From assembly GCF_045037415.1 (NCBI RefSeq), contig NZ_CP173438.1: a stretch of 64,000 nucleotides of DNA; one strand, written 5' to 3'. Source of the stretch: Escherichia coli. GTDB taxonomy: Bacteria > Pseudomonadota > Gammaproteobacteria > Enterobacterales > Enterobacteriaceae. Made by a program: the position numbers. How positions within the stretch are numbered: position 1 is the stretch's first letter; every line of letters starts with the position of its first letter. Positions 40,401 to 46,400 of the stretch are shown here, piece by piece.

Positions 40401-43400
40401 GAAGGTAATCCGCAGCCGGTTTTTGCCAATACGGAAAAATTGAACGATGCTGTGGAAGAGCTGCGTCAGTTGCTCGATAACCACCATGACCTGAAAGTCT
40501 TGGAAACACCAATCTATGGTTATGTGTGGCTGAACATGGAAACGGCACATCAGCTTGAGTTGCTATCGAATCTGATTTGCCGGGCCTTGCGCAAATAATT
40601 CCTGAACTTCAGAATCATCTTGCTGCTGCTTCGATTCAGCAAGGATAAAGGGTATGATAGTGAAAAGGGATAAAAGCATTGTCATCTGCGGCAGCTATGA
40701 GTAATGTTGGCCCTAACGAATAGCGGTTGCTTAAACGAATCCGACTCTCACATTATCAGGGGTATAAAAATGGAAACTACCAAGCCTTCATTCCAGGACG
40801 TACTGGAATTTGTTCGTCTGTTCCGTCGTAAGAACAAACTGCAACGTGAAATTCAGGACGTTGAGAAAAAGATCCGTGACAACCAGAAGCGCGTCCTGTT
40901 GCTGGACAACCTGAGCGATTACATCAAGCCAGGGATGAGCGTTGAAGCAATCCAGGGCATCATCGCCAGCATGAAAGGTGACTATGAAGATCGCGTTGAC
41001 GATTACATCATCAAAAATGCCGAGCTCTCCAAAGAACGCCGCGATATCTCCAAAAAGCTGAAAGCTATGGGCGAAATGAAAAACGGCGAAGCGAAGTAAT
41101 TCCCGTTTTATTCAATGAGGGTTGCCCGGCAACCCTCATTGCTCATTGATTCTTATCTGTGTATCACCGTCATCATTCTCATCTGAGAACCAATCGAAAT
41201 TAACAACAGCCTTCTTCTGTATGCAGCAAGGCAAAAAGTTCTGTAACTCCATTGTTATTAACTGCACTGGTTACTAACACGTTGTGCGCTCCAGCTTCCC
41301 GTAACCAACTTGTCACCAAAGATATTTGTTCCATGCTGGCTAAATCTGCTTTGGTTACTACTCCAATGACCGGGTGATTCATGGCCCGGTAGGGCGTTTT
41401 TACCTCTAATTCCTGCTTCAGCGCTGAGATTCCTGCTTGTTGCCGGAAAAGCAGGCACCTGCCGTCTGAACGGTATCGATCCGGAAGCGTATCTGCGCCA
41501 TATTCTGAGCATACTGCCGGAATGGCCCTCCAACCGTGTTGACGAACTCCTGCCATGGAACGTAGTTCTCACCAATAAATAAGCGTCAATACGGTGCTCC
41601 GTTGACGCTTACTTTAATCCGTTTTCTGAGCTTAGATTTTTCTGTTCCTACCCAGACCGTGGATTTGGAATTCATTTTTTGTCAGGTCAATGCTAATCGT
41701 TAAAACGGCCATAACGCACCTCCACTGGAAGGTTTATCAGTAATATCCTACCGTTGCTTCATGGTCGGGGCGTCCATTCCATTATTATCGGTTTTCCTTT
41801 CTGTTTATAAATGAAAACGCCAGCTGTATTCAGGCTGGCGTCAGGGGAAATGAAGCCTGTTGAGTGAGATTCACCGGTTCTGGTGCAGAAGCTGCAGATG
41901 GCGCAGGGTAAGGACATCTTCTCTTGCCTGCTTAATACAGGACAACAGTGCTGTTTCTGTGGTTAATGGCACTATACCCTGTATCACTGCATTGTCTTAC
42001 AGCAACTGGTGAGGGCTGGCATAAGTTGCCGGTGTTTCGGTAGAGTCACGGTCATCCACCACGCGGAGTGAATAACCGTTTTCAGCGGCCTTATTAATCA
42101 GTTCAGTGATATTAACACCATCAATGTCAACGACAATGTGCCCCATATCCAGCGCCTGTACGTTAACGCTGTCGGCTTCCAGTGTCATCATTTCGCCTCC
42201 GGATACTTACCCAGGGTAATGTTATTTACCGTTCTGTAATTGTCGCTGGTCATCAGGCCGGTCGCCCTGCGAGCCCGGAGGATATCGATGCTGTTTATTA
42301 ACTGAGAGCGGGTACAGGCGCTGAATCCCGGCTGGTCGGTACGCACCAGCGCGTATTTTTCCACGAGAAAGTTCACCGCATCACACAGTGAAATGCCTGC
42401 CTCAATATGCTGCTCAATCACACGTTCATCGGCAAACGGTGTGTCATTCAGTGTGAGGCCATAGTGCTGGTCCAGCAGTCGGGACAGCAGTATCTGCCAG
42501 ATTTCAACAGGAGACGGGCGAGAACTGGCCGCCTGCCCGGGTAATACAGGTAATGTTTTCATACTGAAGATTTTCCTGATATGCAGATATAAAAATGGAA
42601 AAGTGGCGTGGTGAAAACACCAGGCCGTAGCAGAAGGCTATTCTGGAGAGTTAATTTTTCATTTCGGGCGTCGGATAAACAGCCAGATAAACGTAACCAC
42701 AACTGCTGAGGGTATCGGCTTTGCAGGTCAGCCCTTTTGCATACAGCGTGACGGTATGCTGATGGCGGGGATTCAGTTCACCGCTGGTGAGCATGAGTTC
42801 CAGTTGTTTCATCAGCAGCGGAAAGGCCTGGTCCAGGTGGTACGCATCTGCATCGCTGAACAGGCCTCTGATACCGGCGCGGTCGGCAAGGTAATGCAAC
42901 CGGTTACCCTCCTGCACCAGACGTGCCCCGAAACAGGGCGTCACGGTGCAGGGCAGTCCCCACCAGAGGCGGTCGTTATGGTCGTCGGGATAATTTGTCT
43001 CATGGAGTTTGTCTGACACGATAAAGTCCTCAGGTCAGCCGGCGCGCAGACCGGCTTCGGTGAAGGTGTATTCGTTGATGAGAAGGGCCTCATCCACAGC
43101 GGCATCAGAGGTCAGCCTGTCGTACTCGTTTTCCAGCTGACGGTACAACCAGAAGGCCAGGTCGCGCAGGGCTTCGCTGACAGCGGCTTCCGCATCGGCT
43201 GTCATAGCCTGACCAGTCGGACTGTTCCGGGTAACAGTGATATCCATGCTGTACGGATGGCAGTAACGTCCCCGGTGGTGGATTTCAGCCTGCAGTTGCC
43301 AGAAGTTACGTTTCTGCACCGCCTGCAGGGCATCCGCGATACGATGGAGTTCATGGTCCTGTGTGGCATACTCCCGGAGCCTTCTGGCTGTTGCTGGCTG

Positions 43401-46400
43401 CCAGTGCCAGCGTCCTTCAAAACAGGCTCCGTCCCCCTGGCTGCAGAATCCGCTGAACCAGATGCACGCCTCTTCCATAAACCTGCCGTTGCTGAGCCGG
43501 AAAACGCGCTGGCGGAGGTCAATTCCGAAAATGCCACAGACCGCCCTGAAGTCCTCATACACGTTTTCATACCAGTTGCTGTCAGCATGATGCTGACGGT
43601 ACCAGTCGCGGGCTTTTTCCTGTGCGGTGGAGGATAGCTCATGCAGTGTATACACGGTGGTGGTGATAATTCTGCTCATCAGAATGCCCTTACTGACTCA
43701 GTTCAGAGTGACGCTCATCAGCCGGACATACGGGCCAAAACTGTCCTTACGGCGTTCAGCAAACACGGCCAGCACACCGGGAATATCCTGCACTTCACGA
43801 CCGGTATACGCTTCAGCACTGCCGTGCCAGCGGTATTTGCCGGTACAGAACGGAAAAAGACGGGATGCAGGATGCTGACGGTGAATACGCATGGCTTCGC
43901 CACGGGTGATGATTTTCATAGTGGGATACCTCTGAAGACAGAAGATAAAAGTGAAAACAGGTGTGATGTGGTTGTGACGGGTTAAAGCAGACCATGTTCG
44001 GCAAAGGAGAAAACCTGGCTGCCACCGACTATCAGATGGTCCGGCACCCGGATATCCACCAGGCCCAGTGCCTGTACCAGACGTTCGGTGATAAGCCGGT
44101 CTGCCTTACTGGGTGTGACTTCACCGGACGGGTGATTGTGCGCCAGCACCACGGCTGCGGCATTGTGATACAGGGCGCGTTTAATCACTTCCCGGGGATG
44201 GACTTCCGTGCGGTTGATGGTGCCGGTGAAGAGGGTTTCACCGGCAATCAGCTGATTCTGGTTATTCAGATACAGCACCCGGAATTCTTCACGCTCCAGT
44301 CCCGCCATGTTCAGAATCAGCCATTCCCGTGCCGCACGGGTGGAGGTGAAGGCCACGCCGGGTTCATGAAGATGGCGGTCCAGGGTTTTCAGGGCCCGCT
44401 GAATGAGGCTGCGCTCTCTGGTTGTCATTTCTCCGGGCAGAAAGGAAATCTGTTGCATTGTTCCGGCCCCCTTTCAGTCAATAATGCGCATAATGGCGCT
44501 GCATTCCGGATGCTGCAGGGCGTAATCCCGCAGACGGTAATAATGAACCGTCATGGCATAACACTCCGTACGGCAGGCGTGATGACTGTACGTCATCAGA
44601 CAGGCGGCAATGCCGGCGGCTTCCGGGCTCATTTCAGCGCGGTTACCGTTCATGGCATTGAACAGTACCCATGTTTCGTCATCATAGTCATCCGGTTCAG
44701 GGGCCATAAATGCCCCGCCGTTGTTCAGGGTGTACAGATTCCAGATACCACCGCAGTAGTTTTCGCACAGACGGTCCATCCAGCCGAAGACACGGGGCTC
44801 CAGGGTCACCCACTGTGGAATGAGGCCAAAATGCTGCGGCCAGAAGCTGATGCGCTGTTCATCAGGGACTATGGTGGCAACCAGTTGTTGCAGGCCAGTC
44901 TCCGGTGCACAGGCCGAAGAGGTGGTGTTCTGAGACAATGTTTTCATGTATGAAATCCTTGTAATGTGAATAAATGAGAGGGAGTAAAGGTCGGGAGCTG
45001 GCAACATCACGTTCATCACTGACCGTGAGACCCGGTAATATCAGGGATGAATGATATTCGGCTGAAATTCCGGACAGCCGTACGCGTAACCGTTCCGGTC
45101 ACAGACGGATGGCCAGATGCCATTGCCTGTACTCAGTCTGCACAGACTGATTTCTCCGGGACGGTAAAGCAGACGGGTACACCAGGCGCACAGGTCATCA
45201 TCAGAAATGGAACGACACCCCGGCAGCGCCTCCGGGGCGTCGGGTGATTCTGGTGCCTGAATCACGCCTTCAGGGACATGCTGCATCAGCGCAGGCTCTC
45301 CAGCAGCGTTTCTGCCATTACCCACAATGCGCGGTTGAGCTTAATATCGGTGTCGATGCTGTGAATGGCACGGGTGTGGATACGTTTTCCTTTTGCACTG
45401 CGACCGGAAATCCCGCCTTTCAGCATATTCTCCTGGATGGTCTGATAAGTACTCCACAGGTCCTTACCGTAATCCTCCCGGCGTCGTGGCGTCAGAATGT
45501 CGGCGGTGGTGACGGGCCGATGTTCGTCACCATAACGGTAAGTCAGTGCCGCCTGTGCCAGCGCCTGGCGTGCCGGTGGCGGCAGAATCAGCGACTGCAT
45601 GGCATCACGCTTCTCCTCTATCCGGTCAAACACGCCCACCACCTCGTAAGCCCCTTCAATGACTCTGTCCACCACATTTCCCCGGTGCGGAACACGCACT
45701 TCCCCCAGAGACTGACCACAGACGCATCCGTTCTGGCAGACGAACCTGAAGTAACCCGGCAGCATCTGGTAGCTGGAGGTACCGTCATGAGAGTTGAGCA
45801 GAATAATTTCAGGGACATGTTCTCCGTTTATCTCTCCGTTACGGCGCAGACGCAGCATGTGTTTGGTGTATTCCCGGCGGTCCGGGTCACGTACGCGGGT
45901 CTGGCAGGCGAAGAATGGATGAAAGCCTTCCCGCTGCAGGCTTTCCAGTACGGTGATGGTGGGGATGTACGTATAGCGTTCACTGCAGGAGGTATGCCGG
46001 TCTTCACCGAAAATACCCGGTACATGGTGCATCAGTTCTTCGTGTGTCAGCGGACGGTCACGGCGTATCTGGTTTACATAACCAAAACGACTGGTTAATC
46101 GCATGATTTGCTCCTTATCGGTGGTTAAGATTTACTGGTGTAATAAATGAAAAAAGCCACGTCTCCCGGAGAAGACGCGGCCTGACGGGTGAAATGAATG
46201 AGGTTTATTGTCTGAGAAGCCTTTCACTGGCGAGCCACGCATTAAGCGGCTTTCCGGCAACAATGGCTGGGGCTGTATTTACCTTTGATATTAATAATGT
46301 GCAGAGAAACGCATGGTTTACTCCTCAGGTTTTAAGTTTGTCCAGAGCCACAACGACAGGTTTTCCGGATGTGTCGATGACTCCTACCGTCGGTACGCCA

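Follow-up and report, generated by a model that had tools for sequence, protein, structure and literature searches.

The proteins CbeA/CbtA, YafW/YkfI, and YfjZ/YpjF of Escherichia coli K-12 are functional toxin-antitoxin (TA) pairs. One of the K-12 gene blocks that encode such a pair, yfjXY-ypjJ-yfjZF, has been described as a single operon (PMC10846083). Anti-restriction genes, anti-CRISPRs, orphan methylases, genes for single-stranded DNA-binding proteins (SSBs), and TA genes also cluster in the leading regions of plasmids, and one third of the abundant leading-region families are uncharacterised (Samuel et al. 2024, PMC11541004). We analysed a stretch of 64,000 nucleotides (nt) from E. coli (NCBI RefSeq assembly GCF_045037415.1, contig NZ_CP173438.1), referred to below as the window, in which an open reading frame (ORF) of 214 codons, ORF214, lies between yeeT, which encodes a DUF987 protein, and the TA genes cbeA and cbtA. 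ORF214 is a real gene under purifying selection. Its family is common to integrative and conjugative elements (ICEs), plasmids, and virulent phages, and the product has a confident structural model without a relative among the solved structures.

The locus shares features with several described systems. ORF214 and the antitoxin gene of the CbeA/YeeU family are direct neighbours in the same operon, and the two are occasionally joined by an in-frame stop-loss fusion. In contrast to CbeA/YeeU, ORF214 has no PF06154 match and no convincing fold match, it is about twice the size, and it has spread far beyond CbeA/CbtA. With KlcA/ArdB and ArdA, ORF214 has in common the gene company (antirestriction, ArdC, orphan methylases, SSB, and TA genes), an acidic character, and the occurrence in plasmids, ICEs, and phages. 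However, it has no sequence or fold similarity to these proteins, and it is characterised by a glycine-rich loop, a histidine, and a tyrosine rather than by an acidic surface. Two further entries are a gene labelled DUF8835 in E. coli strain Ec-U18, with 93% identity and at the same position, and phrog_5162, a PHROG without functional category that matches from end to end.

ORF214 comprises 645 nt and starts with ATG. The features of the gene that are needed below are the following:

43035-43679, minus strand: ORF214, member of the DUF8835 / phrog_5162 family (RefSeq WP_000086752.1)
43687..43691, minus strand: Shine-Dalgarno-like AAGGG, 7 nt 5′ of the ORF214 ATG and within the 18-nt spacer between yeeT and ORF214, read from the sequence
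43425..43442, minus strand: codons 80-85, the SQGDGA motif, the most conserved motif of the family
43257..43259, minus strand: codon of H141, nearly invariant, located in a loop between strands 129-135 and 145-151 of the AlphaFold2 (AF2) model

A preceding sequence-only reading of this DNA had noted an intact frame between yeeT and cbeA, and the ORF call bears this out. The gaps of 16-19 bp given there are near the values found, which are 18 nt from yeeT and 15 nt to cbeA. ORF214 is 100% identical to WP_000086752.1 ("hypothetical protein"), which is an annotated coding sequence in many E. coli genomes (megablast). The length is exactly 645 nt in 10 of 10 homologues compared, which stem from E. 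coli, Citrobacter, Klebsiella, Salmonella, and four alphaproteobacterial elements. The pairwise ratios of nonsynonymous to synonymous substitution rates (dN/dS), for pairs with unsaturated dS, range from 0.11 to 0.23, and the value is 0.2 at a dS of 0.54 between E. coli alleles. The RefSeq match, the thousands of homologues, the fixed length, and the low dN/dS values show that ORF214 is not a chance ORF. The sequence-only reading had also considered a fused or frameshifted version of neighbouring genes, which can be dismissed because none of the Pfam domains of the neighbours matches ORF214. The product has a mass of about 25 kDa, a pI of 5.7 (the family median is 4.7), and no hydrophobic N-terminus; it is predicted to be a soluble, mildly acidic protein.

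To call the gene unrecognised, as had been done, is partly right: it is annotated in RefSeq, common in E. coli, and has an ortholog with a family label, one that has no assigned function. The label DUF8835 was assigned by the NCBI annotation pipeline PGAP to the Ec-U18 gene (NZ_CM192145.1; L026, 3079-3722), a pseudogene between DUF987 and a YeeU-family antitoxin gene. As this gene is an ortholog of ORF214 with 93% identity over 645 nt, the ORF214 family is already catalogued as the DUF8835 domain. The RefSeq product name of the Ec-U18 gene is misspelt ("DUF8835 domain-containing pootine").

ORF214 had no match in Pfam-A, in a set without a DUF8835 model, or in NCBIfam, and 121 diverse homologues likewise matched 0 families of the same Pfam-A set. 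PADLOC-DB yielded 0 families at E<=1. No Pfam domain matches the extra segments of the longer proteins in the family (P0137 and others). The profile search that had been suggested did find a relative, phrog_5162 (E 5.3e-37, 128 bits, residues 2-210 against profile positions 2-195 of 201), and the structure search found none among solved structures; phrog_10310 matches the N-terminus only. An exhaustive HMMER scan retrieved 3,512 cluster representatives (50% identity) at E<=1e-3 and 1,877 at E<=1e-10. A legacy NCBI/UniProt product name calls ORF214 an antitoxin, a generic label that is also used for RelB, and the current RefSeq name has reverted to "hypothetical protein". RelB, Phd-YefM, and RHH domains were sought with Pfam in ORF214 and the 121 homologues and were not found, nor was a toxin gene found next to the phage and plasmid homologues. 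The legacy name is without support.

The sequence-only reading had described ORF214 as inserted, noting that in K-12 the DUF987 gene is directly followed by the antitoxin gene. The statement on K-12 is correct for the three islands checked (yeeT-cbeA, ykfH-yafW, and ypjJ-yfjZ), but the polarity has to be reversed. The 73-nt yeeT-cbeA spacer of K-12 CP4-44 starts with the ribosome-binding region of ORF214, keeps ATGAGCAGAATTATC..., i.e. about 25 nt (the ATG and about 8 codons), and then jumps to sequence 3′ of the ORF214 stop codon, so that about 620 nt are gone. Because the start of ORF214 remains in this spacer, K-12 CP4-44 carries a deletion. In an island of O157:H7 EDL933, the 162-nt spacer between the DUF987 and antitoxin genes encodes ORF214 residues 177-214 (the C-terminal 38 codons) with 66% identity, and in strain Ec-U18 the ortholog is frameshifted and has an internal stop. 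No ORF214 remnant was detectable in the spacers of CP4-6 and CP4-57 (18 and 37 nt). As the CP4-44 and EDL933 islands both keep remnants, the gene-bearing arrangement is the older one, at least for the CP4-44 lineage. The scar and the remnant point to loss, i.e. to a deletion in K-12 and not to an insertion in the island analysed here.

The frequencies of both arrangements were estimated from 5,426 complete E. coli genomes with megablast. ORF214 has a match of any kind in 2,100 genomes (about 39%), ST131-type strains among them, at 3,071 places, and it is present in full length in at least 1,942. The yeeT gene is found in 4,798 genomes at 12,889 places, and the K-12-type deletion junction in full length in 3,770. 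ORF214 is therefore kept in roughly a quarter of the yeeT-bearing islands. This share is a minimum, since an allele with 64% identity, for example, is not picked up by megablast.

In the window, ORF214 is embedded in a block of genes that are all encoded on the minus strand:

45286-46104, minus strand: DUF932 gene, the first conserved gene of the block (PF06067, E 2e-51)
44474-45019 (longest ORF), minus strand: KlcA/ArdB-type antirestriction gene (PF03230, E 4.5e-37); the RefSeq product has 157 amino acids (aa)
43982-44458, minus strand: yeeS, RadC-like JAB protein (PF04002, E 1e-44)
43698-43919, minus strand: yeeT (DUF987), directly upstream of ORF214 (PF06174, E 1.5e-40)
42651-43019, minus strand: cbeA, YeeU-family type IV antitoxin, GTG start (PF06154, E 7e-53)
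42188-42562, minus strand: cbtA, toxin (PF06755, E 8e-58)
41997-42191, minus strand: yeeW, DUF5983_N (Pfam match)

No promoter-like or terminator-like site was found on the minus strand from yeeT to cbeA. The tight spacing, the lack of an intervening promoter or terminator, and the homologous K-12 operon yfjXY-ypjJ-yfjZF make it a reasonable inference that ORF214 is co-transcribed with the antirestriction, RadC, DUF987, and TA genes, in line with what the compact spacing had suggested at first sight. In enterobacterial P4-type islands, the operon DUF932-antirestriction-RadC-DUF987-(ORF214)-CbeA-CbtA can do without ORF214 but regularly includes it. For K-12 CP4-57, yfjX and yfjY (L020, 2420-3369) have been renamed lfgA and lfgB, and the RadC-like LfgB has been reported to be a protease that cleaves the antitoxin MqsA (PMC10846083), which may bear on the function of the whole operon.

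Citrobacter and the E. coli islands with alleles of 81% and 64% identity share the order DUF987, ORF214, CbeA, CbtA. Klebsiella michiganensis has DUF987, CbeA, ORF214, CbtA, and Salmonella has DUF987, CbeA, CbeA, ORF214, CbtA, with a 4-nt overlap of ORF214 and the second cbeA gene. ORF214 thus adjoins cbeA on one side or the other in all enterobacterial loci compared. As to the question whether the frame belongs to a well-known family that is normally present at this position, this is half the case: the position is regular in E. coli and Citrobacter, in Klebsiella and Salmonella the gene is shifted downstream by one gene, and the family has no assigned function.

The 15-nt spacer keeps ORF214 and cbeA in frame, so that loss of the stop codon yields an ORF214-CbeA fusion. 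Natural fusions of 342-343 aa exist in which TGA is changed to TGY (P0002) or to TTA (P0008 and P0013). The latter two are found on at least 12 contigs, one variant on 8 and the other on 4, including a complete chromosome. The fusion is thus tolerated, which is a weak hint at a functional link. The P0002 fusion (342 aa) was co-folded with AF2 using an alignment of natural fusions, concatenated locus pairs, and unpaired homologues of each half. The ORF214 half was predicted confidently, the linker had a pLDDT <50, the CbeA half had values of 57-72, and the overall pTM was 0.57. As this pTM is near the 214/342 expected for two unconnected domains, the co-fold does not support an ORF214-CbeA complex; with a shallow CbeA alignment and no predicted aligned error (PAE) this is a weak test and not a clean negative. 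Four chimeric proteins (P0037, P0092, P0044, and P0001) either carry parts of ORF214 fused to sequence of antirestriction proteins, YeeT, or DUF5983 or have a segment duplicated internally; recombination between paralogous islands or assembly artefacts could account for them.

Outside the enterobacteria, the family occurs without the TA pair. CbeA, CbtA, and YeeT were searched with tblastn in 12 non-enteric loci with ORF214 homologues (174 kb in total), and none was found. Alphaproteobacterial homologues on conjugative plasmids and in ICE-like regions are 57-60% identical and have exactly 214 aa. On Haematobacter pOT1-2 and Sphingobium pCHQ1 the neighbouring genes encode an ArdC-like zincin, DUF2958, a ParB-N protein of about 700 aa, a strawberry-notch helicase/methylase, toprim, DUF2493, and DUF736. 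In Tistrella the homologue lies 1.9 kb upstream of nikA-relaxase in the same orientation. On Phaeobacter pP97_c the order is SSB, DUF932, two RadC genes, DUF6878, DUF6915, a 139-aa gene, ORF214, a ParS/RES TA pair, methylase-helicase, and toprim. This block parallels that of E. coli, but the TA pair downstream of ORF214 is a different one.

A conserved gene of 138-139 aa (MADYFTHFSCL...) overlaps the start of the alphaproteobacterial ORF214 homologues by 8 nt (L002, 7592-8008; L016, 6592-7008; L017, 6589-7008), which suggests translational coupling of the two genes. A relationship of this gene to YeeT or CbeA was considered and rejected (best BLASTP E 0.6, no Pfam match). Metagenomic relatives of ORF214 adjoin genes for orphan C5 methylases, strawberry-notch-type helicases, DUF2958, and SNase. 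One metagenomic contig (L007) carries tandem paralogues at 84-731 and 1143-1808 with one 123-aa gene between them.

In PLSDB, 113 plasmids carry the family, 41 of which are typed as conjugative. It is also present in 69 phage records, mostly of large virulent phages, which include Caulobacter/Brevundimonas jumbo phages (in the terminal repeats), Asteriusvirus jumbo phages, Vequintavirinae, Acinetobacter Saclayvirus, and Pseudomonas Lana. The phage homologues lie among runs of small hypothetical genes, without a conserved partner. One of them, in Acinetobacter phage vB_AbaM_CP14 (L027, OP585105.1), is labelled "RNA polymerase binding protein"; the label was disregarded because ORFs of about 60 aa in the same record are named "DNA polymerase" and "sliding clamp". 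On plasmid pB18-3 of Acinetobacter indicus, a homologue with 27% identity (L018, 7004-7603) lies beside, and divergent from, an operon for a type I-F CRISPR-Cas system, with a small helix-turn-helix gene after the homologue, a layout reminiscent of acr-aca loci.

The AF2 model of ORF214, calculated from an alignment of 121 sequences, is a compact single-domain alpha/beta protein with a pLDDT of 96.7 and a pTM of 0.89. Foldseek did not find a solved relative in the PDB (best E 0.2), PDB searches with the single protein and with a profile gave chance matches only (E>=0.5), and among the predicted viral structures of BFVD only uncharacterised phage proteins match. A likeness of the C-terminal helix to the N-terminus of YkfI/YpjF was judged to be due to chance (tblastn E 9e-4 in a tiny database, BLASTP E 0.3).

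Conservation was evaluated with two alignments, one of the 121 closer homologues (A1) and one that includes phage homologues, down to 25% identity (A3). The centre of conservation is the hairpin loop G77-F-x-S-Q81-G-D83-G-A85-x-F-x-G89, in which Q81, D83, and A85 are invariant and G82 and G84 nearly invariant down to 25% identity. L15 and G52 are also invariant at that depth, and H141, in the following hairpin loop, is nearly so. In the long C-terminal helix, Y186 is invariant and L182 nearly invariant, while W177 of the same helix and E14 are nearly invariant among the 121 closer homologues only. A C-terminal N-E-Y-x-F-T-x-x-G is conserved as well. The phage homologues are 25-38% identical, and some lack the hairpin at 57-71. 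Judged from the alignments, the pattern looks like that of a binding or catalytic pocket and not like a charge-mimic surface.

The remaining features of the island are as follows. The flanking genes tmaR, yeeA, and sbmC place it at the CP4-44 position, and, except for one insertion sequence (IS), the region matches that of E. coli SK1144 with an identity of 99.97-100%. This element, of the IS21 family, spans 2.58 kb (47101-49679; istA 47945-49486 and istB 47184-47933, both minus strand) and is absent from SK1144; its flanks overlap by 7 bp, resembling a target-site duplication, and a gene for a 225-aa hypothetical protein is interrupted. A short ORF between the DUF932 and antirestriction genes (45041-45325, minus strand) encodes 94 aa from GTG, is an 81-aa hypothetical protein in SK1144, and has no Pfam match. 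A set of three genes (50150-54503, minus strand) encodes a dynamin-like GTPase of 794 aa, a YjcZ/RdcB-like protein of 301 aa, and a patatin-like phospholipase of 356 aa; it has weak PADLOC matches (LeoBC 3e-5, phospholipase effector 9.5e-5) and may be a defence-like module. An IS66-family transposase gene is located at 61276-62889 on the minus strand. An Rfam scan of 40500-47500 found no RNA family.

We tentatively propose that ORF214 works on its own as an accessory protein of mobile elements and would serve their establishment in a new host or counter-defence. Its gene company fits the leading-region picture of Samuel et al. (2024), and the anti-defence or accessory role put forward by the sequence-only reading is compatible with the genomic contexts, by association. 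ORF214 would be expressed together with the antirestriction and RadC genes and would help the DNA of a newly arrived element, or an infecting phage, to cope with the recipient cell. The protein would act alone on a widely conserved host target or a small molecule, and the acting site would be a pocket of the invariant S-Q-G-D-G-A hairpin loop, H141, and Y186 instead of a DNA-mimic surface. ORF214 would not be the antitoxin of CbtA, and the CbeA/CbtA pair would work without it. A more specific version, which draws on genomic association and conservation, is doubtful, namely that DUF8835 is an effector of ICEs, conjugative plasmids, enterobacterial P4-type islands, and virulent jumbo phages that disarms a broadly conserved host function or immune signal via the SQGDG/His/Tyr pocket and has additionally been wired into the CbeA/CbtA operon of enterobacteria. 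Several points weigh against the proposed role in establishment or counter-defence. The functional argument is one of guilt by association, made from neighbouring genes. The homologue on pCHQ1 lies about 17 kb from the relaxase gene, so that a location in the leading region is at most tentative. The pocket is deduced from sequence conservation and secondary structure, and the literature searched on DUF8835, WP_000086752.1, phrog_5162, and the combination of yeeS, yeeT, and cbeA contained nothing on ORF214. Lastly, the location between antitoxin and toxin genes in Klebsiella and Salmonella, the invariable contact with cbeA in E. coli, and the persistence of stop-loss fusions in some E. coli lineages indicate that the enterobacterial genes may be functionally linked to the TA pair.

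A rival reading makes ORF214 a third component of the enterobacterial CbeA/CbtA module, which would bind CbeA, CbtA, or their targets FtsZ and MreB as a modulator, a chaperone, or a second antidote. The constant adjacency to cbeA (ORF214 precedes cbeA in E. coli and Citrobacter; Klebsiella and Salmonella have it between cbeA and cbtA, and in Salmonella there is the 4-nt overlap), the in-frame fusions in several E. coli assemblies, and the legacy antitoxin name at NCBI are in its favour. All three K-12 pairs of the CbtA family lie in loci without ORF214, and we regard a third component as quite unlikely. It is unlikely, too, that ORF214 is a factor for the excision, replication, partition, or transfer of the element itself, which was later co-opted by phages and does not counter immunity. 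The ParB-like, toprim, SSB, RepA/ParA, and relaxase genes next to the ICE-like copies and the coupling to the 138-aa gene via the 8-nt overlap would be compatible with such a factor, but E. coli islands that are decayed, do not transfer, and lack those modules still keep ORF214 under purifying selection, homologues exist in virulent phages with unrelated replication systems, and the protein has no recognisable DNA-binding or nuclease domain. The repeated loss of the gene (the K-12-type scar in 3,770 genomes, the EDL933 remnant, and the Ec-U18 frameshift) and its retention in only about a quarter of the yeeT-bearing islands could also mean that the copy in this E. coli island has no function and is a passenger, a remnant that is still intact but in the process of being lost. 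Given the dN/dS of 0.2 between E. coli alleles at a dS of 0.54, the full-length copies in at least 1,942 genomes, and the strictly conserved length, a mere passenger is very improbable.

For the biology of the E. coli islands, these results mean that the yeeT-cbeA arrangement of K-12 CP4-44, as a deletion derivative, is unfit as the reference state. If the reading as an establishment or counter-defence protein is true, DUF8835, with about 3,500 clusters at 50% identity, would rank among the larger anti-defence families that are uncharacterised. Because the family is common to ICEs, plasmids, and virulent phages and has a confident model without a solved relative, ORF214 is a fair candidate for an anti-defence screen.

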